Below, piece after piece: positions 2,508 to 33,400 of a stretch of DNA of 64,000 nt. The stretch spans positions 992,001 to 1,056,000 of the forward strand of contig JAYWIR010000038.1 of NCBI GenBank assembly GCA_036172245.1, written 5' to 3'. Position numbers and translations under genes: made by a program. This stretch comes from Raillietiella orientalis. Taxonomy: Eukaryota. Below the pieces are notes generated by a model that did no database searches, was not told where the DNA came from, and worked only from the letters and a program-made list of their open reading frames with translations. Position 1 is the stretch's first letter, and the number at the start of each line of letters is the position of its first letter.

Positions 2508-4639
2508 AGGTGCATTCGGCCTGAGGAAGTGCCGGGTACCTTGGCTGTCGCGGTCGATCTCCGCAAGGCGTTCGACTGCGTGAATCAGTATCTTCTTCTG
2601 GAGCTCCTGGAAAGCCTTGGTCTCCCGGTGCACCTCGTGGCCTATTTGCGCGCTTGCTGGCGCCACGCGCTGATCTCTATCTCTTTCAGCGGCTGCCATG
2701 TGTACGGCGTGCCGGTGCGGCGGGGCATCAGGCAGGGAGACAGCTTAAGTCCGTTGCTCTTCAGCATCTTCTTTGAGTTGGTGCTAAGGGCGTACAGGCT
2801 GACGCTAGCCAGCCTGCCGAGCTCTTGTCCAGCAACGCCGTCCGTGGCAGCCTATGCCGATGACCTGCTTCTCCTTTTACCCATGACCACCCCGGCGTCC
2901 AGTCTTGGAGATTTCTTCGAACTGATTCGTCGGGGAGCGGGCATGAGCGTAAACTGGAGCAAGAGCGTGGTCGTTCCTGTTGGTGCGGCGTGGGAGGGGC
3001 AGTCCGACTGTATCCGCCTGGGGATCCCGAACGCTTCGTCTTTCAAGTACTTAGGCGTCCCGCTGGGAAACATCAGCCCAGTGGAAGCGTGGTCGGACTG
3101 CCTTCGCAGGCTACGAGTGCTCTGAGCCCGTTCCACCTTGGCAGGTTCCTCCTGCCGGAGCGGGCCACCTTGTGGAACACCTTCGTTGCCCCCCTCTTAC
3201 GCCCCCTGCTTTTTGTTTGCCCGCCCCCCTACTCGGCGAAGCTTCAGGCGCACAGCCTGTTGAGGAACGCTCTGTGAGGACCTGAGAGGTCCAGGATCCG
3301 CCTCAAAGACTTGGCGGCTCCGCTTCGGGATGCCTGTTTGGGCATCCTGACGCTGGAGAGAATCGAGCTGCAGGTGCAGCTTCGAATGTTGGCCTTGTAC
3401 GCCAATCTTTGGTCCACTCCGTGGTGTGCTCCTGCGCGTCTGCTCCTGCGGCGCTGTACCGGCAGTGATGGACTTCTGCCGCTTTGGCCGCATACGGAGC
3501 GCGCCACGAGAAGCTTCGGTTTCCCCTTGAAACCGCTTTACCGGCTCCTGGCAGCCCAGGAATGGATCTCCTGCCGCCCAACGAACTTTGAAGCCTGGCG
3601 GCAGGAACCGTTGCATGCCTGGGCAAAGCAACAGGATGTTTCGCTCCTGGAACTCCGTTGCGCCAACCTCTCTCCGTACTGCACGGTGGATGAGGTCTGC
3701 AACAGCCAGGAGAAGTGGACTCGCCTGGCCGTCACGCCCCTCGCCGACGCGCTGTCAGCCCTCAGGGCAAGTGATGACAGCTGCCTACCGGCGAGGTGTG
3801 AGGTCACCTGCGCCATCGCAGGAGCAACACGACCCATAGTCGGCTGGAGGACTTGCGAGCTCGCAGACGCCGCCACGCCTCGCATCATCCCGAAGGGACT
3901 CCATCGGTGGAGTTAACATTTGAGTGTGCCTCCCGAAGAACTTGTGGTCCCTCCTTTGTGTTTGAACACTTCTGTGTTCCCTCTAAACTGGAAACAGGAC
4001 GTCATTATGCTGGTGCACTGGGGTTTTCACTCCGACCAGCGGACGAACCGTGTGTCCGGGGGAGTCGTCTCCCCGAACTGTAAGCGGTGCGGGGAAGTGG
4101 AAACGCTCCCGCACCTGCTCTTGGACCTCCAAGGACTGTGGCGAAGGCTGACCTCAGCTCTCCTGCACCGGGGGGACACCGCGAGAGACTTGATGCACCG
4201 CTTCTTCACGCCAGGCGGCCTGTCTCTAGGTGTGGTGGTCGCAACGGTGTGTTGCACCAGCGCCATCGACAAGGCCCACCGAGAGCTGGAGAAACTGGCC
4301 ATTCTTCGTCAGCCCACCGGAATAGCCGGCGTGAACATGGCGTCGGCTGCCGAGTGGGCCCATTTTCCAGAGGGCGTTAGGAGAGAGATCGCCAGCATCT
4401 ATCGCCGGTTCTGAAAGAATGAAACGGCCGCACCAAAGATCCCTGTCCCCTCCCCTCCCCATATCTTTATTTCTATTTTTTATATGTGTATTTGTGGTCC
4501 CCTCCCTCCCGTTCCGGACTTTCGGTATACCGACCTGCGTGTCGGGGATCCCCCTCCTTCGTTTCTTCTGTGTCCTCTGTCCGGGAACTCTGTTCCTGGA
4601 TCGTTTATTAATAAACGCCCCGGCGCACCCGGGTGACAA
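2508..4639 (+). mobile_element. 5'-truncated L1/Tx1-like non-LTR retrotransposon with 16-bp TSD
   Basis: RT motifs DLRKAFDCV, RGIRQGDSLSPLLF, YADD, FKYLG and C-terminal CKRCGEVETLPHLL. Flanked by gcagcctcgccctcga (2492-2507) and gcagcctcgctctcga (4640-4655). Ends ataaacgccccggcgcacccgggtgacaa. Confidence 0.92.
2529..4414 (+). pseudogene. Disrupted ORF2 (reverse transcriptase + C-terminal region) of the non-LTR element
   Basis: ORFs 2529-3125, 2990-3277, 3311-3916 and 3920-4414 join through one frameshift near 3120 and in-frame stops at 3275 and 3914. Confidence 0.88.
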
Positions 4640-4859
4640 GCAGCCTCGCTCTCGAGTTGCGATCGTCGCGTCGAGGCAGCTCGCTCTGCAGCGGAGCTTT
4701 CAGGACGAAAGCGACAGGCCATCTTCCTCCTCCTCCTCCTCCTCTTGGCTGTCCCCACTCCACAGGGAGCTGCGGGGAGCCCTCAACCGAATCGAGCGGC
4801 GAAGGGGGGCGTTGCCCGTATCGGAAGGGGGCCGAGGACCGTAAGGACCGGATTTCGAA

Positions 4860-5340
4860 GACCTCCTCCTCCCGTCGGTTGCCGCGGGCCAACCAGCAAG
4901 CCAAGAAACGCTACCTCCCGAAGCTGCAGGTTGACCGACGCTGTCGTCCGTCTGTGGCATTTTGGCGAGTCGCGGTCGCAGAGAAAAGTAGCGCTACCCC
5001 TCACTTCCCCATTCAACCGGGCTACTGAAATGGGCTTGGTCGCCTCCAAACCAGAGTGCCCGAAGCACGTGGAAAGCTGAGGGGAGCCACCGTTCCCTTG
5101 GCAACTCGCTTCCTGCGTCGGGACGAACCCACCTGGGGAACGCATCAGGAAGCGGAACCTACGTGGACTTCGGGGGGGAAAGGTCCAACAGAGAGGGCAA
5201 GCACCCATCCCGCTGCTTCCAGCCACAGGAACAAATGTTCTTGTTTATTTCTTTATTTTTCTCCCCTCTTTTTCATTTTCTTCTTCCCCCCGCCTCCTCC
5301 CGTCACGGACCTCATCGGCGCCCCCCTGAAGGGTCGTTCG
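4860..5340 (+). mobile_element. Highly diverged 3' fragment of the same non-LTR family
   Basis: VPLATRFLRR resembles IPYAVRFLRR of other copies. It is followed by a T-rich tract and ggacctcatcgg, as in the family 3' UTR. Confidence 0.35.
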
Positions 5341-6129
5341 TCTCGGTGGGACGTCACTTCCTGCCATCTTTGTGTGAGTTTTCTTCCAGAGCAAACGCCA
5401 CGGGGTGACTGGGGAGGGTCCTCACAGGCGTGGTAACCCCATCCTCGTTTCAAGGGGAAAGTCCAGTACGCCAGCGAGGTGGCAGGCCCGGTGGTAGGGC
5501 GCGGGAGGGATGGTGGTGGGCGGCTGTCGGCAGTAAAGGCGAGCGCTTCATTCGACCCCTCTGGCGTAACCGGCTGCAAGACCTCGAAGTCACGTCGACT
5601 ACCATCAGGGGCCGGTTCGTTCCACGCGCTGACCCATCCCGTTTATTTGTTTATCCCCTTCCCAGCCTTCGCCCCCCGGGGGGAGGCCGGCAGCATGCCA
5701 TTTGTTTGCTTGTTCTCGGGTAGATGATGTGGCGAGTATCCAGCATGAAAAGGCGGGTGTTCGTGTTGGTCCATGTGGATGATAGAGCTGAAGCGTGAGG
5801 AACATGGACATCCCCGATCGGCAAAACGCTCACGCGAACGCCGCGGTCGAAAGCGCGCCCCCTCGACGCGCGCGCGACTGCGTCGGGTGATCCCCTGCCC
5901 CGATCCGAGGATGAAGTCTTCCGGGCGCACCTCGACCCCCGGGATTCCTCCGGGAAGTTCGGCGCCCTTCCCGATCCGGGGGTTCCTTCCCTCCCGCCCC
6001 TGCGTGCGCTCCCCGGTTTTTACCGCGGGTCGGCGGCTTTTCAGAGAACTCGCCCTGCTGGAACCTAACCCCAACCTCCTCCCCCTATTGTTTATTCCTG
6101 CGGGCCGCTTGCCGTCGCTCGGAGCCGTG

Positions 6130-6888
6130 TCACTCCTCCTCCAGGCCCGGAGGGGCCGGAGAAGGGCGCCGCAGCACCTTCACGTAGTGGACGGCCGTCT
6201 CGGCGACGTTGGGGTTGTCCTGTGGGAAGGCAAGCTCTCCGTCCGGACCCCTGTAGCTGGCGTAGGGCAGCTCGTTGACCCTCTCGAAGCCGCGACTCTC
6301 GTAGGCCCTCCTGGACGAGGACGAGGTGGCGTCGGCGCTGGCGACGTGGCAGCGGACGGCGTGGGCCCTCCGAAGGCTGATGTCCGTGAACCGTGAGTGG
6401 ATGCCCCGCTTCTGGTACCCCTCCAGCACTGACACCATGCAAATGTATAAGAGCCTTCCGTCCCCGCCGTCCTCCGCAGGGTGCCGCTCATCCAGTGGCC
6501 CCTCTAGCCGCTCCAGGAAGTTGCCGATGAGGAGCAGGCGCCCTCTGACGGCCGCGTCGAGCCGCTGGCTCTCCGAGGCGATGCGCAGCTGCTGCACGAT
6601 GACCTTTTCGTCGCCGGGCTCGATGATCTCGTTGATCGCCATGGCGATGACGCAACCGGTGGCCTCGTCCAGGGCCACGTAGGACGCGTTCTGTGGGACG
6701 ACGAGGTCAACGTATGAAGAGAAGAAGTATGAGGAGTGGACGCCCCCCACGAGGTGGTTGAGCGTCTCCCGGACACCGAAGTTCCTGTCGAAGTTGTCCA
6801 GGAGCTCCACCTTCCTGTCGATGCCGCACAGGGCGAATCGCACGCCCGGGATGGCGACCTGGTCTTCCTCGAGGATGGCGTCCGTCAT
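6130..6888 (-). CDS. GNAT N-acetyltransferase, insect-type arylalkylamine N-acetyltransferase (iAANAT/DAT)-like, 252 aa, intronless
   Basis: ATG in an ACC-ATG context at 6888. FGVRETL resembles the FxxDEPL motif; acetyl-CoA motif A SVLEGYQKRGI; ATSSSSRRAYESRGFE..ELPYASY. Minus-strand AATAAA at 6091-6096. The extension to 7137 in the ORF track is low-complexity and probably UTR. Confidence 0.88.
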   Translation of the reverse strand: MTDAILEEDQVAIPGVRFALCGIDRKVELLDNFDRNFGVRETLNHLVGGVHSSYFFSSYVDLVVPQNASYVALDEATGCVIAMAINEIIEPGDEKVIVQQLRIASESQRLDAAVRGRLLLIGNFLERLEGPLDERHPAEDGGDGRLLYICMVSVLEGYQKRGIHSRFTDISLRRAHAVRCHVASADATSSSSRRAYESRGFERVNELPYASYRGPDGELAFPQDNPNVAETAVHYVKVLRRPSPAPPGLEEE

Positions 6889-9681: not shown

Positions 9682-10434
9682 TCACCATTTCGCTGAAATG
9701 GTACCTTCCTTTGGTTTCAAACATTCGGTAAGGACATTTTTAATTGCAGTACTTATCGGATCTTTTAGCCTTTCTCTACTCACCTTCTCACAAAATCTTC
9801 TCACACCGTAACCTATTAATGCTGTAATGAATTGCAGCTACTGTTGCAGCTGTGATGAATACCGCAACAGCAGTACCAACAGGGGTCCAAGCAGCAGCAT
9901 CTGCAAGGTATGCTATGCTCATACCGAAGCTCACTAGTAACAGAACGCATGAAAAAGAGCTCTTTTGCCAATAATTGGAGGTCTTAAGTGAGTTTGTGAT
10001 GTATTTTATTTGCTTTCCCAATAACGAATGTTGGTATTTCACCAATCTTTACAGTAATCCTCAAAATCTTTCCAAAAACTATTACACTTATGTTGCTGAT
10101 TTTCTGAATCTTTATCGTTATTCGGATATTGATAGCCTCCGCTATTATCATATTGCCTTCTTTTTCCTTGATCAGATAATACTTTGTTTGCCTTGTCGAT
10201 TTCTATGAATTTTGCTATTTTATTTTCGATCTGAATTTTCTGCTCTTTCTCTAATTCTGATAGCAGCTCTCTATTTCTTATCTGGTCTGACGATGCGCAT
10301 GATGTTTGCTTTTCCTCAAGTGACAAACACTTATCTGGATGAAACTCTTTTGCAAACTGGCGATACGCTTTTTTTATCTCATCCTCAGTAGCATTTTTAC
10401 TCACTCCTAATACCTTATAATAGTCAGCATTCAT
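9682..10434 (-). pseudogene. DnaJ (J-domain) protein with C-terminal hydrophobic segments, two frameshifts
   Basis: [32 protein letters not shown] (HPD motif) and [14 protein letters not shown]. Frameshift near 10045 into a hydrophobic segment (..TPVGTAVAVFITAATVAA). Second frameshift near 9830 into ALIGYGVRRFCEKVSRERLKDPISTAIKNVLTECLKPKEGTISAKW*. Confidence 0.8.
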
Positions 10435-10990
10435 AAATCCCCCACTCCATAAACTTCCTTTATGTTAAGGATATAGTTAACCTAAGCTTTTGTCCATACG
10501 TAGAATGTAATACATCAAAAAATGGTTCAACCTATACAAAAAGTCTTTTCTAATTTAACAGAACACTACACTTTCTGGCATCAACCAAAATTCATTTAAT
10601 TACCTTCGAAAATTCCAAAAAGTGCATACATCTGTAAGGACAGGCCGCCTAAAAATGCAGTTGTGAAAATAGAAAGGTCAAACTGTTGCAACAAAGTCAG
10701 GCAAATCAGTTCGTGTACAAATTTGTGAAAGCATAATAGTATAGCTAATTTCAAGGCATAGTGGAGCTATTATAAACAAAAAGGTTATGAGGTTAGGAAC
10801 AACGTCTACGAGTAAAATTTCACAGTGCCACTTCTATGTGCTATAATAGACTTAATTTATAAGGAAAACAAAGTTGGAAAAGTTGGGGGAATTTAGAGAG
10901 AACTGGATAGCAAGGACAGGAAGATTTTTATCTTCATTATTTTTTTTAACGGCTGATTGCGCTATCAATACGAAGTTTTTTATTCGAGCC

Positions 10991-11786
10991 GACCCGTGGG
11001 CGGCTGCAGGACCTGCGAGCTGGCAGACGCCGCCACGCCTCGCAACATCGCGAAGGGACTCCTTCGATTGAGTGAACACTTGAGTGTGGCCCCCGATGAA
11101 CTTGTGGTCCCTCCCTCCTGTTTGAACATTTCCGTGTTCCACCTTTCGTGGAAGCAGGACGTCATCATGCTGGTGCATTGGGGTTTTCACTCCAACCAGC
11201 GGACGAACCGTGTTTCCGGGGGAGTCGTCTCCCCGAACTGTAAGCGGTGCGGGGAAGTGGAAACGCTCCCGCACCTGCTCTTGGACCTCCAAGGACTGTG
11301 GCGGAGGCTGACCTCAGCTCTCCTGCACCGGGGGGACACCGCGAGAGACTTGATGAGCCGCTTCTTCACGCCAGGCGGCCTGTCTTTAGGTGCGGTGGTC
11401 GCAACGGTGTGTTGCACCCGCGCCATCGACAAGGCCCACCGAGAGTTGGAGAAGCTGGCTATTCTTCGTCCGCCCACCGGAAGAGCCAGCGCGAACATGT
11501 CGTCGGCTTCCGAGTGGGCCCATCTTCCAGAGGGCGTTAGGAGAGAGATCGCCGGTTCTGAAAGAATGGAACGGCCGCGCCAAAGACCCCTGTCCCCTCC
11601 CCTCCCCATATCTTTATTTCTATTTTTTATATGTGTATTTGTGGTCCCCTCCCTCCCGTTCCGGACTTTCGGTATACCGACCTGCGTGTCGGGGATCCCC
11701 CTCCTTCGTTTCTTCTGTGTCCTCTGTCCGGGAACTCTGTTCCTGGATAGTTTAGAAACAAACGCCCCGGCGCACCCGGGTGAGAA
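10991..11786 (+). mobile_element. 3' fragment of the non-LTR element (close relative of 3830-4639)
   Basis: Near-identical by eye to 3830-4639, including the 3' UTR and terminal hairpin. Confidence 0.9.
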
Positions 11787-12465
11787 ACAGTGGCGCTCTC
11801 CCTCTGAAGTGACAGGAGGTGGCGTTGCTGGTGCTGCATTGGGGAAGCCCATGCAAAGCACGTCTCCATCACTGGACACGGGGTAGTGTGGATGCCCGTT
11901 GCGAAAGGTGCGGCGATGTGGCAAGAAAGAGACTTCGCTGCACCTTCTGCTGGACTGTGCTGCCCTCCGACCCCTCTGGGATTATCTGTCGAAGATCTTA
12001 GATATTCCCGAAGGCGGTCCAGGGACATTTTGGGGAGCCTCTTCGTTCGTCCCGATCTGCCGTCAGCCGCGTCTGGAAGTTCCCTGCTGCATCCGCGAAA
12101 TCGTGGCGGCCTGGAACGAGAGAAGACGAAACCAGAATGGTAGGAACGCCATCCACTGGACGCGGGTCTTTCTAAAAAACGCATCAAGATGCCCCACCTG
12201 GGAAATAAAAGACCATAACTTGTCAGCATCCTAGAAAGGGTGCTGACAAGTTATAGTCTCCCCAACAAATACCTTCCTCTCTTATTTTTCCCTTTTTGTT
12301 TCCCTTTTTTGTCTTCCGTCTCCCTTCGCGGCGATAACGGACCTCGCCGGTCTACTGACCGGTGACCGGCAAGTTGGACTGACGTGGTGAACCAATCGGT
12401 TAACCACTGGATAACTCGTTTTGTACTTTTATTATCTTCATAATAAATGCCCATCCGGGTAATAA
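11787..12465 (+). mobile_element. 3' fragment of a diverged non-LTR copy
   Basis: LLVLHWGSPCKARLHHWTRGSVDARCERCG, HLLLDCAALRPLW, T-rich UTR, hairpins, and the end taataaatgcccatccgggtaa. Confidence 0.85.
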
Positions 12466-12879: not shown

Positions 12880-14100
12880 CAAATGGTCTGCTTCCGGGAC
12901 AGGAAGCGGGGATTCGGCTTCCCCCTTGGACGACCGACCCTCCCCTCCGGAAGCTCATAGATCTTTTGCCGCCCAATTGGAATCGAATGCCTGGCAGCAG
13001 GAGGCGGTTGTGTCCCGGGCTGGAAAACGGATGCGCCCAGCGGACCTTCGTCGCCTGCGACTCTCCCTTGACCATCCTTTGGTAGAGGTATTGAAGGAGT
13101 GGAAGACTCTGATAGCCGCACCTCTTGCCGCAGCACTGCCCGCTCTAAGGTCAATTGACGGCAGCAGCCTACCAGCGAGGTGGGAGTTCTCCTACTCCAT
13201 TGCATGAGTGACCAAACCCCTAAGCGGCTGGACAACAGGCGAGCTGGAGGACGGCGCCACTCCTCGACAATGACAAAGAGAGACTACGTCGGTGATCCGA
13301 ACCGGTCAGTGCGTCTCCCGGAGAACTCGTGGTCCTTCCCTTGTGTTGGAACACTGCAGCGTTTCCTTTGACCTGGGGCCGGGGCTGTACTGCTGTTTTT
13401 TCTCTAAGGGTTTCCGGTGCAATCAGCGTTGGCATCTCGTTTCCCGGGGGAGCCACATTCCCGAGCTATGCACCAGGGACGGGTCGGCGGAGTTGAACTC
13501 GTGCCTGCTATTGGACTGCGGTGACCTCCGCGAACTGTGGTGGAGGCCGGCTTTGGCACTCTGGTGCCATGGGGACACCGCCCACGACCTGCCTAGGCGG
13601 TCTCGTGCCCGACGGACTCTCGGCGGGTTCAGGCATCACACGACGATGAGTCGCGTCTGCGCCATCGTCACGGTCCGCCATGCGTCTGAGACGCAGATGC
13701 TGCGAAGGGGAAGTCGCCATGATAGCAGCCGAGCTACATGACGACCTGGAGCAAGAAGTGAAAGCGGAGGTCGCCGGCGTGCAGAGCCGGTTCTGAAAAG
13801 AAGAGACGGCCGACAGCGGCACCCTTCGTCCCCACCCACCCCTCATTCATTTAGTTACTTGCTTTTTGTCCCTTCCCACCTGTTCAGGACTTTTCCCAGT
13901 TTTTTTCTTTTCTAAAAGGAGCAGGACTAACCGAAGACCCATGTCCCCACACTCCCCATTCTGTTATTTATTTGTTTTCCCCTCTCTTCCGTTCCCGACT
14001 TGTCTCGACCTGCTTGTCGGTGGGCCCTCTCCTTGAACTTCCTTTGCCTTCGGTTGGGGACCAGCGTGCTCCCAAATGGTTTGTTTGTTTGTTTTTTCAT
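12880..14100 (+). mobile_element. Degenerate C-terminal/3' UTR fragment of the non-LTR family
   Basis: PLAAALPALRSIDGSSLPARWE..GWTTGEL matches PLADALSALRASDDSCLPARCE..GWRTCEL. Also LLLDCGDLRELW, and a UTR-like hairpin cgac-ctgctt-gtcg at 14006-14019. Confidence 0.7.
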
Positions 14101-15719
14101 TAGGTGGACCAGCGCGAAATTTCCATAAGGGCGGGCAGGTGGTCCTCATGTGCTGTTTCCCCCCTGTAGCAGCAACAACCGCGTTCCACATCACATCTTG
14201 AAGCTGTTTTTTTTTTTTTTTTTTTTTTTTTACCACTGCACGAGATCTGCTCCGTCGCATCCACCCACCTCAGGAATCGTGTGCTGCGTGCCTGTTTTGG
14301 AGCAACACGTAAATGGTACATGCATTCATCATGAGTAGGAGGAGAAAGTTCGAGAAACTGCCATCTGCTTCGTACACATCGGGGTGTGCTTTTGAAACAT
14401 TCTCCAGTTTGTGTTCCAGGGATGCCAGTTTCGGTGCTCTTCGTATGCAAACGGAACGCGAATGCCATGTGTCACACCCTGTAATGCAGGAGGTTTGGAT
14501 GGAAAAGAGAATTTTGTTGTTGTTGTTGTTTCTCGACCGTCAAAAATTCGAACAGCGGACGGAGCAGAGGCTGCCATGGTGATGCTCAGAGTTCATATCG
14601 GAGATTCCATGGTCGGAGCGCGTCCAATCCGGAAGCAACGCGTGCTTCCCATATCGGATTCACTGCTGTGGTCGTCCGTAGCAAATGCTGGCCGTGTGTG
14701 AAGTCATTTTGGTCTCTTAGACTCGCCTGTGACTTGTGGAAGAGGCCGGCCAATGGCTTTCCATTGGGCAATGATTTAAGAAATCGTTTGCGCTGGTGAG
14801 CGTCTTGAGGTACGCCTCTTGAGGTATGCAAAAAATAAATAAATAAAACTCTTTGTAAGGCAGGACCGAAGTAGTCCAAGGGGGGGGGGAGATGGTAGAC
14901 AGTAGAAGGACACGCGTCAGGGAAGAGGATTTCGATGTTTTGGAGTTGTCCAATCAGGAAGCTTGGTCGGTGACCAGAGAGGAACTCTTGAGGGTCGTTG
15001 TTTCGACCGCTTGAGATTGAGTTGTCTTGACCTTCGATTTTGTCTCGACGTCTACGCTGAGTGTGAGGAGGACTTCTCGTGGGAAGAACGGTCATGAGAA
15101 AGAATACGGGCAAAACCGCACGCAAATCGGTCCTTTCTCTGGCTTGAGGTGACACGAGCTGTACCATTGGATGTACCTGAAAGTGCATCTGGGCAAGGAG
15201 ATGCCATCTTGCTGAGCCCGGGGACCGCGCTTGATGTCGATGGTTACGCGAATTCACGTCGAGTGGGAACGTGGCATCACTGGTAATTTTTGCCAAGGAG
15301 TAGGTGGTAGGTCTCTTCTGAACCAGAGTGGAACCGGATGGAGGCGGGTCAGGAAGCTCGGATGCCTGCGAGTTCGGCAAGATGGCACATTGCGGTGCAT
15401 CTGGAGAAGATCCCGCCAAGTTCGCTTTCCTCCTCATCAGTCGGTAGAGAAATGAAGACGATCTCTTGAGGCGAATATGGGGTTAGTGAAATAAATAGTT
15501 GTTCGGAGCTATTACTTGTATAGCGCCCGATGGTATGGTTACATACCAGGGCGAGGTTGATCTCACAGATGGTTATGCACACGAAATGCAGTCGCTAAGG
15601 TATTTCCGGGGACAGAGCTTTGATTAATGAGTAGGAAACTGGAAGGTGAAAGAATGAGATGGCAACCATGCCAAAAGTGGGGTTTGGTTCAAAATCCCGA
15701 ACGATCTTCGAAATGAATA

Positions 15720-16570
15720 CGTGCGTTTATTATACATGTATAGAGATCTATATATATACTGTAAATGTTATAAAACATATATATTAATATACGTTTGACA
15801 TATAATAAATATATATTCAATGGATATGTAAATGTCGAATTTTTAAAAAGTGCTGGCAATTAAAAGTAATGATAAGGAAAAGAAGACAAATTAACAAAAA
15901 CACCAGAGAAATTTTGTATTTCATGTTCCTATAGATAAATTTTGTATTTTTTGTATTTCATTTGTCCAGCAATTGAGAAATGGCACTCCCTTAGGAAATG
16001 ATGGATTCTGTTTTCGGGATTTTGATCAGAAGATAAATACATCATGTGCTTATAACCCGATGTGTATATATTCATTTCGATGTGTATATTTATTAAATGC
16101 ATCAATATACATATATATATATAAAATGTATAGTAAGCATTTATAATTATTTTTTATTGTCTTTGATATGTACATTAATAATATATGTCAATAGGCAATA
16201 CTAATTATATTAATAAATATGCATGTTAAAATAAATGTGTATATTACTATATATAAAAAATATACATCAGTGTGCATAATAGATGTATATATATATATTT
16301 ATAATCTTTAATATGTGTATTAATAATAAACACATGAATTATATTAATAATATTCATGTTAATAAATACATGTGTTAAATATTACTATTAATTATGTGCA
16401 TATTAATAAATATGCACGCTAAAAATTAATATCGACCATTTATAAATATATATATTAACATGCATAATGAACACATGCATTTATTTTAATGAACTTTAGA
16501 ATATATGTTAGTCTGCACATACGTAAATGTGCATACGAATGTATGTAATGAGCGTGTGTATTTATTTTGA
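15720..16570. repeat. AT-rich low-complexity tract (TA/TATG-rich)
   Basis: Near-pure A/T with degenerate atatat/atgcat units. No ORFs. Confidence 0.8.
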
Positions 16571-16899
16571 ATGACCCTCAGGGATTTCGGAGTTCGGGTT
16601 TTGGTCGGTTTCTTGACCAGTTCCTTGCAGACCCTGAACGGGTGGTTCTGAAGGTTAAACCCACCCTCTTTTGGTGGTGCTGCGCCTCCCGGGTGCAGTG
16701 GGAGGCGAAAGAATGAATCTTCGTGGAATATGACCTTTCAGGGAAAAAATGCAATCTTCAAGCTGCAAGAAACGCGGTCGCAGGGGCGGCTGCCTGATTT
16801 TCGTGGGAAGTTCAAATCGGAGTATGGAGAGGCTCCTGCTGTAGAAGTTGAAGGAGGCACCTGGGAAGTTTCCTTAGTCGAAGCGGAGCAGTCCGTCAG

Positions 16900-17110
16900 A
16901 CTGAATATCCGAGGTGGTTCCAGTTTCTACTACTTCCGGCCAGTTTGGTGCCCGCGTCGGAGGTTTTGTGGTTAAGGCTTCAGCGCGTGGCACATGCGTC
17001 GCGGGTGCGGATACTCCGTCAGCAACTGACGCCACTGCGTCGTTGGAGTACGATGGCGCTGGTTGGCTGAGACATTCGGGCGTGGCACCGGTGATGGTTT
17101 AAGACGGAGG
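16900..17110. repeat. Dispersed repeat family B fragment, inverted relative to 380-545
   Basis: Both copies give VGGFVVKASARGT on opposite strands. Nucleotide alignment is evident by eye. Confidence 0.75.
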
Positions 17111-17929
17111 CCCCCGATGAAGGCCGGAACAAAAAAAGTGGTTTCCATCTTCAAGTGGTAAGGGCGCATGCAAGAGTCGAGCAGCTGGAATGGCTTCTCG
17201 GTCGAGGGATGCGTTGATGACGATACAAGGATTGCTTGAGGTGCTAATGGTGCTGTTGGGGATGAAGCACGTAGCGACGGCTAAGCAGATTTGATTTGGA
17301 TGCGAAGAGCCAAACGAGATGGGCATAGGCATGGTGGAGTTTGAGGTTATTTAGCACAAGGTATTATGAGAAAATGCATGGAAACAAGCTGGGCTGTAAA
17401 GTAGGCCCGGTAGCTATGCTGGAGGTGAATGCAGAGCTGCAGGCGAGGTTTTCTAGGAGCTACATAGGTGCTCTTATTTGCCTGTCATTCGAGAGGTAGG
17501 ATAAGTATGGGTTTACCGATGTGAGGACACTGAGCGACAGAAAGTACGAGCTCTCTGCGGCAGAGCCTTCTGTGGCTCATTTGGTTTCATCGCATCTGTG
17601 GAGAGATTACGTGAGGTGAATGAAAGTGAATGGAGAGAACCCGGGGAAAGGTGGGTTGCTATTCTGTGGGATGGAGGTAGGAGTCAGCGACAAAGTTACA
17701 GTTCTGTGTAGAGTCGTGCATTCGCGTCACGGCTGGTTTGTAGAGGGGGGGAAAACTACTCCATTACCATGGGGCATTCGGATGGCGTGTGATTTGTTTT
17801 TGTTTGGATCTTTGCATTTTCTGATGGATGTGATTTCGTTTTCTTGATGATATGCAGCGGTGGTGGAAGGTTTGTCATCGGTTAGCGCATCTCTTTTTGC
17901 GTAAAGTTAACGCTGTGGGGTGCACCTCC

Positions 17930-18705
17930 AAGAGCAGACGTCCTTTCACGATCGGTGAGACAATCACCGTGATCGGAAAGCTTAGACACTTCTCGCTCGG
18001 ATAGACACTCCCTCCCATTGAAGTGGCAGGAGTCTGCGTGGATACTGCTGCACTGGGGTTTCCCATCCAACGCCCACCAGCATCATTGGACACGGATGTG
18101 TGTCTATCCGGACTGTGCCAAGTGCAGAGAGCGAAAATCGCTCCCGCACCTGCTTGTGGGTTGTGTTGCCCTCCGGCTCCTCTAGGAACGCCTCGCCATG
18201 ACACCAGGAACCCCCGCAGCAACTTCAGTGACGCTTTAAGGCTCCCCCTCCTATGAGAGACCCTTCGGTCAGCAGCCTCGCTCGCAACTCTCTGCAGCCT
18301 ACGTGGGATCGTCGCTGCCTGGAGCAACGCAAGAGGGGAACCGAACGACAGGGGTGCCACATCCACTTTGCCATCCGCTTCATGAGGATGGCAACAAGAT
18401 GCCCCACTAAAGAACGGTATACAGCAAGAGCTTGCCGGCATTCCCGAAAGGACGCAGAGGACCATCCCCAGCAAGACATGACCCCGTCCCGCACCCCCCC
18501 AAAGTTTGTTTATTTTCAGCTTTATTTCCTAACCCTTTTGTTTGTCTCCTACCCTCGGCTGTCTTGGCAGACCTCACCGGTCTGCGTACCGGTTACCAGG
18601 CAGCCTCCCATTGGAATGCACGTGGTTGGACCGGCGGTCCAACCACAGGGATTGTGAAAGTTTATTTTTTATGAAAGAAACGCTTCGGCGCACCCGGGTG
18701 ATAAC
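17930..18705 (+). mobile_element. Internally deleted non-LTR copy
   Basis: The pre-RT segment PFTIGETITVIGKL (17941-17982) abuts the C-terminal segment LPLKWQESAWILLHWG. Full 3' UTR hairpins and the end cggcgcacccgggtgataa are present. Confidence 0.8.
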
Positions 18706-19729
18706 GCAGGAGAACACATGGGATCGTTTTTTTTGTGTGGTAATGAATATGTATGCTAAAATAAATTTGCATATTAATCTCCATATAACTGTGTATATTA
18801 ATATACCTAATGTATATACATTAGATATATTAATTTTTCAAAGCTTTAAAAAATTTATTGATCTATATATAAATTTATATATTAATGTGTGTGTGATAAA
18901 CGTATGTGTTTTTGAGATCGTTGTGACGAACTGGATCCTTATTATCGTCGAGTAACGTAATTAATGCTTCGAGTAGTTGCAGGTGAGTGGCGATTTCTGG
19001 TGGCTCCGGGAAATCGTCGGCTCGTCTCGAGTGGCAGCGCTCGCCCTCGGTGCATTTGGAGGGGGGGGGATTCTGGTAAACCTTGCTGGAAAGTTCTCTG
19101 GCAGCAGATTGGGTGGCGATGGGAGTTGCGGAGTGGAAAGGAGGGGCAAGTGGGAGGGGATGGATGGTTCTTTCATATCATGAGATCCTGTTTTTTATGG
19201 AACGCATTTTGTTCAGCTGATGGTCCGTGAGTGTGTGGGCGTCAGAAGGATGAAGAAGCGATGTTCGGCGTTCCTTGCGATGTCTTGATTCTTGGTTACC
19301 GTGAAGACGGCTGTGGTAAGGACGAGGATTCCTCACCTCGTTCGAATTAGTGGCTAGGGGTCATCTAAGCACTTGCTGTCGTTTCATTGTCTTCGCCGTT
19401 CTGAGTGCATCGGAACGGTCCCTTTTCTGAGGGACCGCATCGGGAGCACTCCGTGTGTAGGTGGTTGGCAAGGCCCCTCAGGGTCTTCCGGGATAAAAAA
19501 GACCAGACAAGGACAGTGGGAAAAGATGCGAACTCCTGATAAAGAGGGAGAGAGATGAAAACAGATTGTCTGCTTTAAACTTCACCAGGCCGACTCGTGC
19601 TGCGTGGACGACTGTGGGGAAGCCCTTAGCTACCTTGCTCTCTGGAGAATCTGATGGCCATCCGAGAACCAGAGAACATAATGAAAATCCTTTTGGATTC
19701 TCCCGTTTTCGCTGCTTTCCTTTCACCTT

Positions 19730-20290
19730 TTTCCTTTTCTTTTCTTCCGGGTTCTCTGCTTTTTTTTGGTCCTCAAGGTGTGCTGAAGAACCGTCCGTCT
19801 CCTCAGGGAGAGCGCACGAAGCTCTTCTTTAACATTGTCCACGCCAACCGAGGGTGCGTGTTAACTCTTCAATTTGTAGGGGGTGACCCTGGAGGGACCA
19901 CTCTGTGAATTCAGGAAGGAATTCAGAGGAAGAAGTCCTTCCTCTTTCGTGCTTGAGAGGGGAACCCCGAAGGGAACCTCTTCTTCCTTATGCTCTCCAG
20001 AGAGACGCCCGGCGTAGGGCCGCTCCTCATTTTTCCTCCAGAGCTACCCTGCAAGGGAACCGCTCTTCGTTTCCCTCTCTGAAATCAACTCCGAAGGGAG
20101 GCTTCCCAATTCCTCTGGAGTCTCCCGGAAGGGAGCAGCGCTCTTCTCAACACTCTAGAGAGGTGGCTCCCAGAGGGGGTGTGAACCAGTTCCATGGTAC
20201 GCGATGGTACGGATCTCTCTTCGCCACCGAAAGGGAACCCCGAAGGATTCCTCGATTCCTGGAACGACCCTGGAGGGTACAATTCCAGTC
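19730..20290. repeat. Dispersed repeat family B copy
   Basis: Aligns inverted with 34010-34530 over ~500 nt (e.g. gaagggagcagcgctcttctc.acactct.gagagg, ggtacgcgat.gtacgg). Confidence 0.8.
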
Positions 20291-21150
20291 CTGGTCAGTC
20301 AACGGGACATCCGGTGGTTTAAGGATTCCGCAGTTCGGGCTTACACTCCCCCGGGTACAGTCAGGTCGGCGGGCGTTGCACGGGAGGCTCCAGTACAATA
20401 GCAGGGCTGCCGACTCCTGCCACTTTAGGGGAAGGGTAGCACTATTGCAACATGCTGGGGGTCACTTCATCTCCTCCGGAGGAATTTGAAGCAGTTCTTC
20501 CCAGCGTAGCAGTCCTTTGGGTGAGACACTCAGGGTCGCGGCGTCCGCCAGACCCCGAGTTGCCCACTCTCTCAGGTGTATTTTCGTGTTTCGTATTACG
20601 CAGGTCACTTCCCACCTCGTTGGCAGCTGGCGGTCTATCGCTTTCCTTAGGGAGGGCAGCGCTGAGGCGACTGGGGTGAATTGAGCCCACAGCAGATTCC
20701 TGGTGTTCCCAGGATCTCCCTCAGCGGCTGGCGGACGTATCTGCTGTTCCGTAGGCAGATGCACTCTGCTTCGTCCGTATCGTTGATTCTTTCCCATGAG
20801 AAAACAGGATTCCTGCAACCAGGCTGTCCAGTTAGCGGGGAGGATGGAGATCTAGCAGATCTGCACAAAGGCAACCATGTGTCGGAGCTGGGGGGCCAAA
20901 ATGGCCCAGACTTCACTCCGTGGCCAAGACGACCGAGATCAGTCCTTCGCAGCCGGTTGCCTGTTTGGCGAGGATTCTTGCGAGAGGGCACCAGGGTGTC
21001 GTCCAGAGCTTGGATGCGAGGGCGAGTGTGTGGAATCGGAGCTGTCGCTCCATTCGCTCCAGCGTAAGGAGGTCCAGTCCACCATACCTACGCGGAGCAC
21101 AGACGTCTTTTAAACGGACTCTGTACTCCGCGAAGGTGAAGAAACGATCA
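20290..21150 (-). mobile_element. Non-LTR ORF2 C-terminal fragment
   Basis: RVRLKDVCAPRRYGGLDLLTLERMERQLRFHTLALASKLWTTPW, LADAAT, WSLPCNARR. Confidence 0.85.
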
Positions 21151-23299: not shown

Positions 23300-25904
23300 C
23301 TCACGACCGGCGAAATTCTCTCCGGGATCAAAAGGCTCAAGAGGCATAAGGCACTAAGGGAGGACGGCCTGCCCGTGGATTTTTTTCAATGCTTCGCGGC
23401 AGAGCTGGCCCCCCTGGCGCTCGAACTGACAAGACCGATCCGAGACGAAGGCGATGTTCCTGCCTCGTTTCGGTCAGCCAGGGTGAGGCTCCTTCCTGGG
23501 AGGAGACCTCAGAAAATTAAACAACTGGCGTCCGATCGCTACTGTGAACACGGGCGCCAAGTTAGTGGCATGACTGTGGGCCGCGCGTTTGGGGCAGGTG
23601 GCCCACTCCATAATTAGCCCGGAGCAGACTTACTCTGTTCCCGGGCGAAGTATGGAGGCCAACCTCTTCTTCGCGAGCACATGGTTTCACGTGCAGCGAG
23701 AAGAAACAATGAAAGGGCGATTTATCGGCAACCTTGCTTCGGGGCCGCCAGCCGGGCAGGGGAGGGGCAATCAGGCGGGGAAGGGAGCCTTAGCGATCGC
23801 AGTTGATCTCCATAAGGCGTTCGACTGCGTGGATCAGGAGCTTCTTTTGGAGCTCCTGGATCGCATGGGATTCCCACCCTCCTTAACAACCTACCTGAGC
23901 TCCTGCTGACACAATGCGCTTATAAACGTCAATTTCAGTTGTCAAAACGTGTACGGCGTGTACGGTGCGGCGCGGCATCCGGAAGGGCGACAGCCTGAGT
24001 CCCCTGCTCTTTAGCACCTACTTCGAGTTGGTGCTGAGAGCATACAGGGCGACTTTGGCTGCCTTGCTGAGCTCCCCGATACTCCCGCCGTAGCAGCCTA
24101 TGCCGACAATCTTCTGCTCTTGTTGCCCATGTCCGCCCCGGCGACCGCAGTCGAGGACTTCGATCTGCTGGGCCGCGGGACGAGACTGCGGGTAAACGAA
24201 GCAGAGTCGTCGGTGGTGGCGGTTGGTACGACGTGAGTCGAACGGTCTGACTGGATGCCTACGGCCGAGTAATTGAAGTACCTTGGCGTTCCGCTGGGGA
24301 ACTTCTGCCCGTCAGAAGCCTGGTCAGGCCGTCTCCAGAAAGTGGAGTTGGCGATCGGCCCGTTCCTGGAGGGCAAGTTCCACTTTCCGGAACGGGCCGC
24401 AGTATGGAACGCGTTTGCCCCTTCCATCCTTGCCCCCTGCTTTTTGTTTGCCCCGTTCCCCTCCTGTTGAAAAAGAGGACGAAGGACCTCCTATGCATCG
24501 CTCTCTGGGGTAAAGGGAGGCCGCGAGTGCCTCTGATGGACTTATGCGCTCCACGTTGGGACGGAGGCCTTGGTCTCCTGACGCTGGAGCGCTTGGAAAT
24601 CCAACTGCGATGCCGCACCATGGGCATCGCAACGAAGTTGTGGAGCACCCCTTGGTGGGTTCCGGCCCACCTTCTTGCCAGCCGTGTCTCCAGGACGCAA
24701 GGACTCGCGTCTTATCTTCTGTGCCCCGGCCGGAAGATTCGAAGATGCGGCCTGCTCCTTGGACGCATGGCGTCCCTGGCTAAGGAAAACGGCTGGATGG
24801 TTTGCAGCCCCGCAGGAGATCGCTGCACGTGGGCGAAGATGCATGAGAGAAGCCACGAGACGTGGAACTGTCTGCGTGTTGGCCCATACGCCCGCCGCAC
24901 CCTGCGGGAAATACTTGAATTTCCCGCGAGTTGCACGTGGGCAGAGACGACCCCCCTTGCTACGGCGATGCCCTACCTCCGGAGGGCGCTTAGAGGCAGC
25001 CAGAAGCCGAGGTGGCAAGTCTCCTGCCGAATCGCAGGCAGGGAGAAGATGTTAAGCGGCTGGACCACAGGAGAACTGGCGGACGCCACGACCCCGAGCG
25101 TCCAGCCGAGAGCACTTTTGCGATGGGGCGAGCTGCTCGCCATCCCCATGGATGTGCTGAAGTGGCCCCCGGTGTTGTTTGAATCAAGGATCCTGCCCCT
25201 TAAGTGGCAAGAATCGGCGCTGCTACCGTTGCATTGGGGTTTACCCTGCAACGCACGCCGCTTCCACTGGACAAGGGGAGCGGTGGATCCTCATTGTGCC
25301 AGGTGCGGAGAGCGGGAATCGCTCTCCCACCTACTTGTTGACTGTGCTGCCCTCCGTCCCCTCTGGGAACGGTTCGGGACGACCCTCGGTCTCCCTGTGG
25401 GCAGCCAACCCAGCGACGTTTTCCGTCTTCTCTTCGTTCGGGACGCCCTTCAGCCAGCTGCAGCCGTGGCAGCACTCTGCTGCATCCGAGGCATCGTGGC
25501 GGCCTGGAGCGATACCAGCGAGGAGGGAGTGGATTCAAACGCGATGGTTGTCATCCCATATGCTGTTCGCTTCCTGCGGAGAGCTATTGGATGGCCCCAG
25601 ATGGGAAGATTGAAGATGGACCTCGAAGGTATCCTGATAAGGATGGACCCTCCTCAAAGTGGACCGTGATTGCTTCCCTTCCCTCCAAAAACTCTTTTTT
25701 TTTTCTTCTTTGTTTTCTGGTTTATTTTTCTTTTTGTTTTTCCCCCCATCCCCTTCCAATGCCGTGGAGAGTCACACCGGGCTGCGTCCCGGTATCCCGG
25801 CAGGTCCGGCATTACGTGGCCGTTAGTGGGGCCTTGTACCACATACTGTAATGACAAGTGAAACGTTTTTTTTTTAATAAACGTCTCGGAGTTCCCGGGT
25901 GGCA
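23300..25904 (+). mobile_element. Non-LTR retrotransposon copy: decayed RT plus intact C-terminal region and 3' end
   Basis: DGLPVDFFQCF, ISPEQTYSVPGR, VDLHKAFDCV, KYLGVPLG with multiple frameshifts. Open frame 24404-25669 with CARCGERESLSHLLVDC. Ends aataaacgtctcggagttcccgggtggca. Confidence 0.92.
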
Positions 25905-26844: not shown

Positions 26845-27060
26845 GATCAAATACTGTAAGAAAATACTGTAAGGTACTAGGGAACCGTATACGAACATAA
26901 AGATATACCAGGTACACAATAGGTACTATGAACTATATACTATCACAAAATACTATGAAAATAATATAAAAGCACCGTAAAATATGAAAATCATGTCAGC
27001 ATACCATAAAATACCATAAACGTAAAAACATACCATAGAATACTATGAAAATATACTTTA
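26845..27060. repeat. Degenerate short-period AT-rich tandem repeat (aatact(a/g)t(g/a)aa / atacca units)
   Basis: Repeated aaatactgtaag, aatactatgaaa and ataccataaa units. Confidence 0.65.
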
Positions 27061-29579: not shown

Positions 29580-30422
29580 TGGACAACTCAGGAGGTCACG
29601 GACGCCGCTACCCAGAGTGTCCAATCCCATGGATTTCTATGGACTGGGGAGAGCTGCTCGACATCCCTCCGGAGGAGGTGGAGCGGCCATTAGCATTCTA
29701 GAGCAGTGACGCTCTCCCCCCCCAAGTGGCAAAAGTGGACGCTGTTGGTGGTGCATGTGGGAATCCCGTGCAAATCACATCTTCATCCCTGGACATGGGG
29801 AAGAGCGTGGAATCTCAGTGCGACAGGTGCAGGAAGAAGGAGACCCTCCCGCGTCTGCTGTTGCGCTCTACTGCCTTCCGACCCCTTTGAAATTGCCTCT
29901 CGACCATCCTAGGATTCTTGGTGGGCGGCCCCAGAAACATTTTCAACCTCCTCTTCGTGAGTGCTCCACTGCCGCCAGACGCATCCCTGGCAGTTCTCTG
30001 TTGTGTTCACGGATCATATCGGCCTGAAACGCCAGGAGAAGAGGACGAAAAGGCAAGGACGCCATTCGCCGGACGAGGATCTTCCTGGAGACCACCTAGA
30101 GGTAGCCCCGTTTAAACATTATACGGACGGAACTTGCTAGCATCCTAGACAGGATGCAGAGGATGCCAGGAAACGTACTGTGATCCCTTCCTCGGTTCCC
30201 CCCTCTCCCCATGAAAACTTCCCCCCCCCCTCCTTGTTTTATGTGTTTATCTTTCTGTGTACGTTTTGTTTTCCCTTCTCCCACGCTGCCGAAGCGGACC
30301 TCTTCGGTCTGCGTATTGGTCTTCGGCAGGTTCATTCCTCGTGGTACAACCACGGGTTCTACCACAAAAATGTATTTTTATTATCTTATGTAATAAATGC
30401 CCCGGTATAACCGGATGATAAG
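29580..30422 (+). mobile_element. 3' fragment of a diverged non-LTR copy
   Basis: PKWQKWTLLVVHVGIPC..WT, T-rich UTR, hairpins, and the end taataaatgccccggtataaccggatgataa. Confidence 0.8.
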
Positions 30423-33400
30423 ACCGCGGACCGTTCCAGCAAGTAAAACTTGCCTTCTTGGAACGGACCGAGCGACCTGCTCTGCATTCTGAAGATGGCC
30501 GGACCAGGTTTCCGCTACGCAGTAGTCCCTCAACGGAACACCCAGGTACTTCAATTACCTATCCATGGGGATTATCAAACGAATCTAGTTTGGCGGTCCA
30601 GACCACGCCGCACCAACTGCCACCACAGACGACTTCTCCCTGTTCACCCTCAAGCTCGAACCGCGGCTGAGCAGCTCGAAGAATCCCTCCAGTGCAGATG
30701 ATGGGGTGGACGTGGAGAGCAGCAGCGGAAGATCGTCCACGTACGTTGCAACGGCAGACGTGCAGGGACATTCGCGCGGCAGGTGAGTCAGACTCTTCCT
30801 GCACACAATTAGCACCAATTCGAAATGCGTGCTAAAGGGCAGGGGGCTCAGGCTGTTGCCCTGCCTCACGCCGCGTCGCAACGGTACGCCGTGAACAGTC
30901 TGCCCGCCGAAAGAAACATGAATGAGCACAGGCAGATCCCAAGAATGCGGTCGGGAAGCCCATGCGTTCCAGGAGCTACGGAAGAAGCTCCTGGTCCGCG
31001 CAGTCGAACGCTTTTCTCAGATCGACTGCGACCTCTAGGGCTTCTCGACCCTGACCAGGGTTGCCGACAACTCCTTTCTTTCTTCTATCTCCTCTTTGGG
31101 TCTCAAACCATCTACTGGAGAAGAGCAGGTTGGCATCCGTACTTCTCCCGGAAACAGCTTAGGTCTGCTCCGGGCTAATTACGGATTCCATCACTCCCTC
31201 AGCCCATAGTCTCGCCAGCAACTTGGCGTCCGCGTTCGGGACGGTTATCGGACGCCAGCTGCCGATTAATCTCAGATCTCCTCCCTTAGGGATGAGACCT
31301 TTGATGGGAACGAGGCAGGAACGTCGCCTGAATCCCTAATCAGCAAGGTTAACTTGTGCACCAGGGTGGTCAACTCTGCCGCGAAGCACTGGTGAAACTC
31401 CTCAGGCAAGCCGTCCTTTCCTGGCCCCTTCCGTCTCTTGAGTTTTCCGATCATGGTGATTGTCTCACCGATCGTGAAAGACTCGTGGAGGCTTTCCCTC
31501 TCCTCTTTCCCTATCGCTGGAGCACCATCCGGCAGCAAAAGTTGAGAGAAATCTCGCTCCGTAGGTGCACTTGCGTAAAGGGAGGAATGAAATCTCCTTA
31601 TTAAACTTCTCACCTGTGCCGGAGTCGAGTGTTCGTGTCCCTAGTCGTCCAGCAAGCTGACTGACCCGGACTGCCAGGCTTGGCACTTAGCCCCGGCCCT
31701 GTACTCTGCCAGGCTACGCAAGATGGGGTTCTGCTGTAACATCGGAGTGCAAGTTCGCCCTTTCGCTATGGGCCGCTTCTCGAAACTCTGCGGGCAGACG
31801 GTCCGGGGGAAACTGACCGCAGAACTCTCTGACCCAGCGTTTCAAACGATCCCAGTTCGGAAGATTCTGGAGGGTCAAGCCTCTCAGGAATTCGCGGAGA
31901 TGTTCCTCTGCTCCTGAGAGGTTCTGTCAGTCTCCCGGAAGACCCACACCTTGGATGGAGGTCCTTTGTATCGTGGGCATGGCTATGTGGCCACTGAAGA
32001 TTTTCCTGTGGAAAATTTGCAGTAGCTCCCCGTGCTTATGAACACCCGCACCCTCGCACTGAAGTGGCAGGAGTCGGCGCTGCTGCTGCTGCACTGGGGC
32101 CTCCCGTGCAACGCCCGTTAGCATCACTAAGCACGGGTGTGTGTTGACCCAAACTGTTCAAGGTGCGGGTAGCGGCTAGAGGACTGTGCTTCCTTCCGGT
32201 CCCTGTTATTGGGCTGTGCTGCCCTGCGACACCTTTGGCAACACTTTGCCGCGGCCCTTGGAACCCCTGTTGGCAACCTCAGCTCCAGGGACGCTGTAAG
32301 ACTCCTCTTTGTGAGGGATACCCTGCAACCAGCCGCAGACCCAGCAGCACTTTTCTGCCTCCGCGGGATCGTGGCGTTCGCGTGGAGCGACGCCAACGGA
32401 GGAAGCAACGACAGGAACGCCACCCACTTTGCTCTTAGCTTTCTACGGATAGCGGTAAGATGACCCCACCTGGATAATGACATGTAACAAGACCTTGCCT
32501 GCATCCTCCAAAGGATGCCGAGGACCGCCCCCAGTAGACTGTTCTCCCTTCCCGAACCCCTCCAAAACTGTTTTATTTTTATTTTGTTCCATTTTCTTTT
32601 TGTTTGGCCACTCCTCTCTGCTGCCGTGGTGGACCTCACTGGTCTGCAAACCGATAAAACGGCAGGGTACATACGAAAAGGACGTAGTTGAACCACCGGT
32701 CCATCCACACAAACGTTTGAAATACGCCGGGGATAATATATTAGTTAGTTCCGGGGTACCCGGGTGAAAATTGTCACGTGGGCAAATCTGAAATTCGATC
32801 CGGGAATGGACGGAGAGAGTCGATCGATCGCCGACCCTTGGGCACAGGTCTCGGTCTAGGAAGACATGGTCGATGCTGTCCCTCGTCCCCGGTTGTCCCT
32901 CTAACAATTTGCGCGCGCGCACTGCTGAGCACAACTCGTTGGCTTCATGATGCTCCTGTGCATGCGGCTCAAGTGAAAGCAGGTGGAGCAAGTTGGAGTC
33001 TCCGCCCATCAGGTGCGCCCTGCGGACACCTGCCTCGGCCAACCACTCTCTCTTTAGGTCATTCAAGAACGTGGCAGTTCTATTCGCGTACCCGTTTTCG
33101 CCTCCGGGAGCATACACGTTGGTCACGAAAAGGTCGATCGAGTCGTCCTACCTGAGAACCGGTTGGCCGACCCGACCTTCCTCGTCGAAGCGCAACCCAC
33201 GCGTCGGCTGCGTCGACGGTTGGCTCCAGAAGGTGGACCACCTCACGGGATTTGCGGCACGGGACCGCAACGCCACGACAGTCGTCCTTCCACAATTCTT
33301 TCGATTTCCCGGATTTCCTCCACGGAGATGACGTGGATCTTCTACAGGAGCACCAGATCGAAGTTTCGCAGCCTGGTGGAGACATTTTGTTTTTTGTCAT

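Follow-up and report, generated by a model that had tools for sequence, protein, structure and literature searches.

What keeps a short hairpin in the tails of retrotransposons whose coding sequences have drifted far apart? The question is raised by a 64,000-nucleotide stretch of GC-rich eukaryotic DNA from Raillietiella orientalis (contig JAYWIR010000038.1, positions 992,001 to 1,056,000; the whole of this stretch is called the window here), in which nine 3′ ends of retrotransposons lacking long terminal repeats (non-LTR) lie between 2.5 and 38.4 kb, all on the plus strand. Each carries the same hairpin, hereafter hairpin 1, in its 3′ untranslated region (UTR). A first-pass annotation had proposed a selected, possibly undescribed cis-acting RNA structure with a changing stem and a persistent CUGCGU loop. 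We put at roughly 50% the probability that hairpin 1 is a conserved RNA structure of the 3′ tail and forms part of the signal that the protein of the second open reading frame (ORF2) would read in a stringent-type long interspersed nuclear element (LINE).

All nine copies share one layout, the C-terminus of ORF2 followed by hairpin 1 about 115 nt downstream of the stop codon (113 nt from stop to loop in copy D). Three belong to type 1, with loops starting at 4535 (A), 11682 (B) and 14010 (G), and six to type 2, with loops starting at 18582 (C), 25782 (D), 38293 (D2), 30309 (E), 12352 (F) and 32644 (H). The hairpin reads CCGAC, loop CUGCGU, GUCGG in copy A (4530–4545, plus strand, as for every copy) and is the same in copy B (11677–11692), which is identical to A across the 161 nt surrounding it; copy G (14005–14020) has UCGAC, CUGCUU, GUCGG. 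The type 2 hairpins have inner and outer stems. Copy C (18557–18605) has an outer CUGUCU/AGGCAG and an inner ACCGGU/ACCGGU stem around a loop at 18582–18587, and copy D (25759–25803) an outer (A)UGCCG/CGGCAG and an inner ACCGGG/CCCGGU stem around a loop at 25782–25787, its closing pair being G-C rather than U-A. In copy D2 (38270–38314) the inner stem is 8 bp long and the loop, at 38293–38298, is inverted to ACGCAG. Copy E (30286–30329) combines a 9 bp outer stem, CUGCCGAAG/CUUCGGCAG, with a weak inner stem that has three wobble pairs; copy F (12344–12365) has an inner stem of 8 bp, a CUACUG loop and a broken outer stem; and copy H (32621–32665) has the outer stem CUGCCGU/ACGGCAG, an inner stem of 4 bp and the loop CUGCAA. 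A covariance model, R1, built from eight copies and run over the 64 kb gave nine matches at E ≤ 1e-5 (copy A: 4507–4562, E 2.8e-6), the next being the opposite strand of D2 at E 0.15. These matches are the nine LINE copies only, and no partner short interspersed nuclear element (SINE) carrying hairpin 1 was found among them. All eight sites named by the first-pass annotation read exactly as written there, and they do lie in the extent that it gave, 4530–32660, but the ninth copy, with its loop at 38293, lies beyond that range.

Pairing in hairpin 1 is kept while the paired letters change. CTGCGT stands within a stem of at least 4 bp in six cases, both strands counted, against a mean of 0.62 (standard deviation 0.91, maximum 5) in 100 dinucleotide shuffles made with our own quick shuffler; since the copies are homologous, the fair null is neutral decay and not chance. 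In an ungapped alignment of 56 columns and eight rows, the inner stem (5–6 bp) is paired in 91.7% of its 48 stem cells, as against 21–48% when the partner is slid by one to three columns. Its closing pair is UA in four rows, CG in two and GC in two, and the next pair is GC in five, AU in two and GU in one. The covariation score of the inner stem is 0.565, compared with 0.340 in shuffles, and none of 500 shuffles reached it. RNAalifold likewise chooses the inner stem when given the eight copies, and the inner stem together with the enclosing CUGCCG/CGGCAG stem when given the six type 2 copies. Once a one-base offset of E and F is corrected, six of six outer pairs form in C, D2, E and H, five of six in D and two of six in F; the enclosing stem, also described in the first pass, is therefore present in five of the six type 2 copies, and its inward extensions vary (AAG/CUU in E, U/A in H). 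The most telling single compensatory event is found in the D lineage, where the 5′ side of the closing pair has gone from U to G and the position facing it from A to C, two transversions without a wobble intermediate. Thus a stem-loop in a LINE 3′ UTR has been kept between diverged subfamilies with compensatory changes, although the nine copies amount to only about seven lineages, because B equals A at the hairpin and D2 is close to D.

The D2 loop is the exact reverse complement of the D loop, whilst the arms are unchanged. This is a small inversion inside an inverted repeat, and it shows that the repeat acts as a mutational substrate at the level of DNA. Small inversions of loops between short inverted repeats are known from plastid and avian DNA, as described in the portions of PMC6824564 and PMC3123225 available to us, and the D2 loop fits that pattern; it is a mutational event in one copy and says nothing about what the hairpin does. 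The loop's exact complement, ACGCAG, also occurs right past the end of copy C (18704–18709), and AGCAG past copy A (4639–4643). Pairing of the loop with these words was considered and dropped, as nothing like either is present in the other copies; they probably arose by chance or belong to the target site.

The conservation of hairpin 1 has to be judged against the divergence of the elements. Between subfamilies the C-terminus of ORF2 has a proportion of synonymous differences (pS) of 0.56–0.74 and a ratio of nonsynonymous to synonymous change (dN/dS) of 0.14–0.60, from which it follows that the subfamilies diverged while active and that neutral sites are saturated and their signal gone; the copies are as divergent as had been supposed. 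The 27-column core of hairpin 1 stands above this saturated background, with a mean pairwise identity of 0.69 among C, D, E, F and H, compared with 0.55 for the coding parts and 0.23–0.47 for the tail flanks. Taken with the reverse transcriptase (RT) encoded upstream, the position of the hairpin and the changes on both sides of its stem, this core identity supports the original suggestion that a cis-acting structure under selection lies in a retroelement 3′ UTR. On these alignments the conservation exceeds, with limits, what shared ancestry alone leaves behind. Closer pairs of copies are less straightforward. A and B (3830–4645 against 10990–11792) differ at 61 of 584 coding positions and at 11 of 232 over the whole tail, with no difference in the 161 positions of 4441–4601 that hold hairpin 1 and a second hairpin, hairpin 2. 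D and D2, the youngest copies (24524–25904 against 37035–38409), differ at 5 of 1146 coding positions and at 25 of 236 tail positions. The divergence of ORF and tail therefore disagrees in opposite directions in the two pairs, which suggests either that lineages have exchanged tails or that errors are more frequent where reverse transcription starts.

The coding parts upstream of hairpin 1 match RVT_1 (E 1.1e-17). Among solved structures the best relative of the RT is human L1 ORF2p (E 7e-40, compared with 7e-17 for R2), L1 being the sole APE-type LINE in that comparison. Public full-length relatives are at most 30% identical and have the architecture APE + RVT_1 + zf-RVT; ORF2 in the window has a C-terminal zinc-knuckle motif, CX2CX7HX4C, and its zf-RVT score of 19.1 bits lies under the cut-off of 27.5. 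Every copy in the window is 5′-truncated, upstream of the RT or inside it, and several contain stops; neither an intact ORF2 nor any remnant of the endonuclease (APE) part was found there. In copy D the C-terminal part of ORF2 is open (24251–25669, plus strand, 472 amino acids); it includes the zinc-knuckle motif and has its D2 counterpart at 36759–38180. RT fragments are found at 2484–3125 (plus strand, copy A), at 23300–24467 (plus strand, copy D, with stops) and at 30222–31724 (minus strand). From their sequences, the elements are best explained as an old and diversified group of L1-like (APE-type) non-LTR retrotransposons, present here as dead fragments.

Hairpin 1 is one component of a tail built in a set order: first a pyrimidine-rich tract, then hairpins 1 and 2, next an A/U-rich stretch containing AAUAAA, and lastly a terminal CCCGG-N3-5-CCGGG hairpin and the end GGGURRYA. 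Hairpin 2 has 11 of 11 pairs in copy C (18622–18646), with counterparts in E (30341–30365, 10 of 11), F (12384–12407, 9 of 10) and H (32684–32708, 8 of 11), all on the plus strand; the counterparts in D (25816–25842) and A (4579–4601) are of unrelated sequence. Two of its positions are compensatory. At pair 6, C has U-A where E has A-U; at pair 8, the G-C of C stands against A-U in both E and F, and H shows an A-C intermediate. The terminal block is seen in D2 (38381–38409, plus strand), with AAUAAA, the hairpin CCCGG-N5-CCGGG and the end ...GGGUAGCA, and has counterparts in A (about 4610–4639), C (about 18672–18704), D (25876–25904) and E (about 30392–30421). AAUAAA stands 85–95 nt downstream of hairpin 1 and the element ends about 20 nt past it. 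The exact end is fixed by D2, a clean insertion that matches D over 37036–38409 and is flanked by a 14 bp target-site duplication (37013–37026 and 38410–38423, plus strand), the second copy of which begins directly after ...GGGUAGCA with no poly(A) in between. Together with the GGGURRYA end common to seven copies, this defines a 3′ terminus that is independent of poly(A). Only the D2 duplication is firm: no target-site duplication of 8 nt or more was found for B, C, E or F, H has a possible 8-mer, and short matches at A and D were rejected as lying inside element sequence, probably by chance. The stretch 5250–5360 may hold a tenth, degenerate tail, a pyrimidine-rich tract followed by CGGACCTC without hairpin 1 (model R1 E 0.51). 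The tail of copy G is cut off by a run of about 25 T residues (14207–14235), after which 14200–18000 is an AT-rich block (GC 0.43–0.46) with a strong GC skew of 0.16–0.25; a minus-strand open frame of 298 amino acids there (14589–15482), with no Pfam match, may belong to a minus-strand element with a poly(A) tail. The first-pass annotation had not noticed the competing helix described below, the two other hairpins, the terminal block with its higher conservation or the inversion of the D2 loop.

If hairpin 1 is indeed part of a stringent-type signal, the ORF2 protein would bind the structured tail of the RNA that encodes it, and target-primed reverse transcription would then start at the exact 3′ end of that RNA; on this proposal, new copies have no poly(A) tail because the reaction begins there. 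From the comparison with known elements we infer that ORF2p would be the reader of hairpin 1, and that the main determinant would be this hairpin and not the terminal one.

Several observations weigh against this interpretation. Every copy in the window is a dead fragment, and some of the differences between copies therefore reflect post-insertion decay. The sample is small: nine copies in about seven lineages, with some three compensatory events spread over two branches; only two of the six inner pairs are altered on both sides, and when pairs with a change on both sides are counted as the measure, 328 of 500 shuffles equal the inner stem. Of the original claim that pairing and loop both persist over a changing stem, the pairing stands, but the exact CUGCGU loop is found in only five of the nine copies (four lineages), and it is CUGC, present in seven of nine, that is near-constant. 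Across the deepest split, between copy A and type 2, both the hairpin 1 core (identity 0.41–0.56) and the coding parts (0.51–0.54) fall below the terminal 34 nt (0.57–0.79), and the terminal block may be the real recognition site because it is the best conserved there. Predicted folding, too, does not favour hairpin 1 in most copies. GCRGACC, which reads GCAGACC in copy C and lies at a conserved upstream GGACCUC motif, can pair with GGUCUGC, which consists of three inner-stem letters and the CUGC of the loop, and this competing helix, not hairpin 1, gives the fold of lowest energy in C, E and H. The calculated energies of the competing helix and the hairpin 1 stem are -12.8 and -6.9 kcal/mol in C, -11.9 and +0.5 kcal/mol in E, and -10.0 and -2.2 kcal/mol in H. 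Predicted over the whole tail, hairpin 1 has a probability of 0.04 in C and 0.00 in E and H, with the competing helix at 0.96–0.99; for hairpin 1 the value is 0.14 in A, 0.00 in B and 0.02 in G, and rises to 0.85 in D and 0.98 in D2 and F. Hairpin 1 is thus dominant in the predicted ensemble of only three of the nine copies.

These folding predictions raise the possibility that, in the C/E/H/F sublineage, the tail RNA has two states, hairpin 1 alternating with GCRGACC/GGUCUGC (loop UCACC), for example between free and protein-bound forms. Such a switch would account for GGACCUC and GGUCUGC being conserved above all other letters of type 2, and the 3′ arm of hairpin 1 is decayed in E and H, where the competing helix still has both of its strands intact. 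Yet D, D2, A, B and G cannot form the competing helix and retain hairpin 1 nonetheless; the U-to-G change in D breaks the competing helix but is compensated in hairpin 1; and it is D and D2 that are the youngest copies. The competing helix is paired in 73.2% of cells with a covariation score of 0.286, against 0.266 in shuffles, 173 of 500 of which reach it, and RNAalifold prefers hairpin 1 on the type 2 copies. On these models the comparative evidence favours hairpin 1, and energy favours the competing helix in one sublineage, and we regard a two-state tail as rather improbable. This conflict means that probing C-type RNA alone could wrongly count against hairpin 1. A broader version, in which hairpin 1 would be bistable in a deep, unsampled L1-like branch, with CUGC pairing either with upstream GGAC or with outer-stem GCAG and a protein selecting a fold that differs from that of the free RNA, draws on the fact that the CUGC of the loop mimics the 5′ strand of the outer stem. 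It adds that tails are swapped by template switching, which would account for a disagreement between ORF and tail divergence that exceeds tenfold in either direction, and it seems to us about as improbable. A different candidate for the signal is the terminal block itself (AAUAAA, the CCCGG/CCGGG hairpin and GGGURRYA), which the RT might read and use as its start, leaving hairpin 1 as an accessory or family-specific feature that might, for instance, help the RNA to fold, stabilise it or aid its packaging with ORF1p or a host protein. Between the types no stretch is better conserved than the terminal 34 nt (0.74–0.79 for A against C, D, D2 and E), the block lies 4–5 nt from the exact 3′ end set by the D2 duplication, and in UnaL2 and ZfL2 the recognised stem-loop is in the extreme 3′ tail, according to the accessible part of PMC4176376. 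However, the terminal stem has one-sided (wobble) changes only, so that its structure is without covariation support, and copy F has no 5′ arm and copy G no terminal block at all, whereas hairpin 1 is kept in nine of nine copies. This explanation is unlikely, though it deserves a little more weight than a two-state tail.

The remaining alternatives would give hairpin 1 another role or none. It might serve the 3′-end formation, stability or export of the transcript and not recognition of the template, given its place in the 3′ UTR, the canonical AAUAAA and element end at the spacing stated above, and the pyrimidine-rich tract upstream of it in all copies. But known upstream polyadenylation enhancers are U-rich and nearer to the signal. 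The genomic copies are without poly(A), which implies that the end of the copied template is set by something other than ordinary polyadenylation, and AAUAAA is replaced by AAGAAA in C and by AAUAUA in H while the hairpins are kept; a role in transcript processing is accordingly quite improbable. Finally, hairpin 1 might have no function of its own, tails having been exchanged after the ORFs diverged and the compensatory changes being chance or DNA-level repair in an inverted repeat. The disagreement of ORF and tail divergence in D/D2 and A/B would fit, as would the active DNA-level substrate seen in the D2 inversion and arms built on the palindromes CCGG and ACCGGT. However, exchange would carry the flanks along with the core, and the type 2 tail flanks are neutral-like beside the core; pairing is kept in all nine copies, well above the slid controls; and about 10 G-U pairs against about 4 A-C mismatches, by our own reading, favour a sense RNA over double-stranded DNA. 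We consider it very improbable that the hairpin is without function.

A conserved tail structure of the kind we favour has several precedents. The ORF2 protein of ZfL2 binds its cognate 3′ stem-loop, reading the stem generally and the loop specifically, and the tail is required for retrotransposition, according to the sections of PMC4176376 at hand. The elements in the window resemble UnaL2, ZfL2-1 and ZfL2-2 of the L2 clade in having a short 3′ UTR stem-loop with a variable stem and a partly conserved loop, and exact copy ends. They differ in RT clade, the best match of their RT being L1 ORF2p, in having no terminal short tandem repeat where UnaL2 ends in TGTAA repeats (on the evidence of an excerpt of PMC3747384), and in the position of hairpin 1, about 105–125 nt from the end of the element as against the last 60 nt for the UnaL2/ZfL2 stem-loop. 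In one plant L1 lineage, in the summary of Ohshima 2012 given in PMC3747384, the stem of a 3′ hairpin shows compensatory changes and certain loop letters are conserved, which was read as stringent-type recognition, and hairpin 1 is similar in its compensatory changes, conserved loop letters and variable stem letters. The plant lineage is described there as having UCU in the loop and CGAG 3′ of the stem, and most plant L1s as ending in poly(A), whereas the elements in the window have CUGCGU, no CGAG and no poly(A); hairpin 1 is followed by UACC, AUCC, UCUU, GACC or AUAA, which sets it apart from the UCU/CGAG pattern. R2 and SART1, site-specific LINEs of insects, also have several hairpins in the 3′ UTR, as do the elements here, and in the consulted passages of PMC4176376 and PMC11194090 this multi-hairpin UTR is needed and is bound by the element protein to start target-primed reverse transcription. 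R2, however, has a restriction-like endonuclease and a fixed ribosomal DNA target, and the RT in the window is much closer to L1 ORF2p than to R2.

As to whether hairpin 1 is undescribed, the suggestion holds for the motif but not for its kind. Rfam gave no match at gathering score over the whole window, and at E ≤ 1 over 4300–38600 only four weak matches to microRNA models, none at any tail; among the papers listed on LINE stem-loops or containing the hexamer CUGCGU, none deals with this hairpin motif, a search with Repbase and Dfam outside its scope. The kind to which hairpin 1 probably belongs, the stringent-type LINE tail stem-loops that include examples in the L1 clade, is well known, and only this motif would be new. 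A word-indexed protein search with the D ORF returned one relative (P0001, an RT fragment of 619 amino acids), and a pattern scan of the metagenome with D and P0001 gave 148 pattern matches, none confirmed as a relative. An 18-letter hairpin 1 pattern hit at least 119 stretches of metagenome contigs, and among those listed none had upstream GGAC together with downstream GGCAG and AAUAAA. Fourteen of the matches listed, which share the 18 letters of copy C (L007, L012, L028, L046, L049, L052, L070, L072, L077, L082, L087, L089, L090 and L111), were set aside as an unrelated AT-rich, LTR-looking repeat (TGTTGAG...CTCAACA) from two metagenome assemblies with no RT similarity; the rest of those listed look like chance in bacterial genes. 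A terminal-block pattern gave five chance matches in bacterial genome contigs, none with hairpin 1, and none in viral contigs.

The surroundings of the elements include pieces of host genes, a DnaJ domain at 10042–10464 (minus strand, E 9e-21) and a WD40 exon at 60721–61341 (minus strand), the best relatives of which are 35% identical and named periodic tryptophan protein 1 (PWP1-like). At its right end the window is AT-rich (GC 0.33–0.47), unlike the GC-rich cluster of elements. Dispersed repeats unrelated to the tail occur at 19730–20314 and 33990–34532 (inverted, 70%), a pair that was checked as a possible carrier of the tail and found to be without it, at 34143–34230 and 51427–51514, and at 355–544 and 16949–17132 (inverted, 80%); one of the dispersed repeats is rich in CCTTCGG-like words. 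Long C/T-rich arrays of low complexity lie on the plus strand at 41458–41605, 45963–46158, 48011–48128 and 49687–49824.

In conclusion, a stringent-type reading of hairpin 1, if true, would give the L1-like part of the LINE tree a tail signal with a new loop, CUGCGU, from a poorly sampled host lineage, no named RT being more than 30% identical. Even then, no new kind of mechanism would be opened. As a compact marker, the tail would help to find and classify these elements, along with any SINEs that have borrowed it, and D and D2 provide a natural pair of loop-inversion variants. The finding would also bear on whether strict tail recognition was ancestral in the L1 clade and was later relaxed, a question discussed in the available part of PMC3747384.

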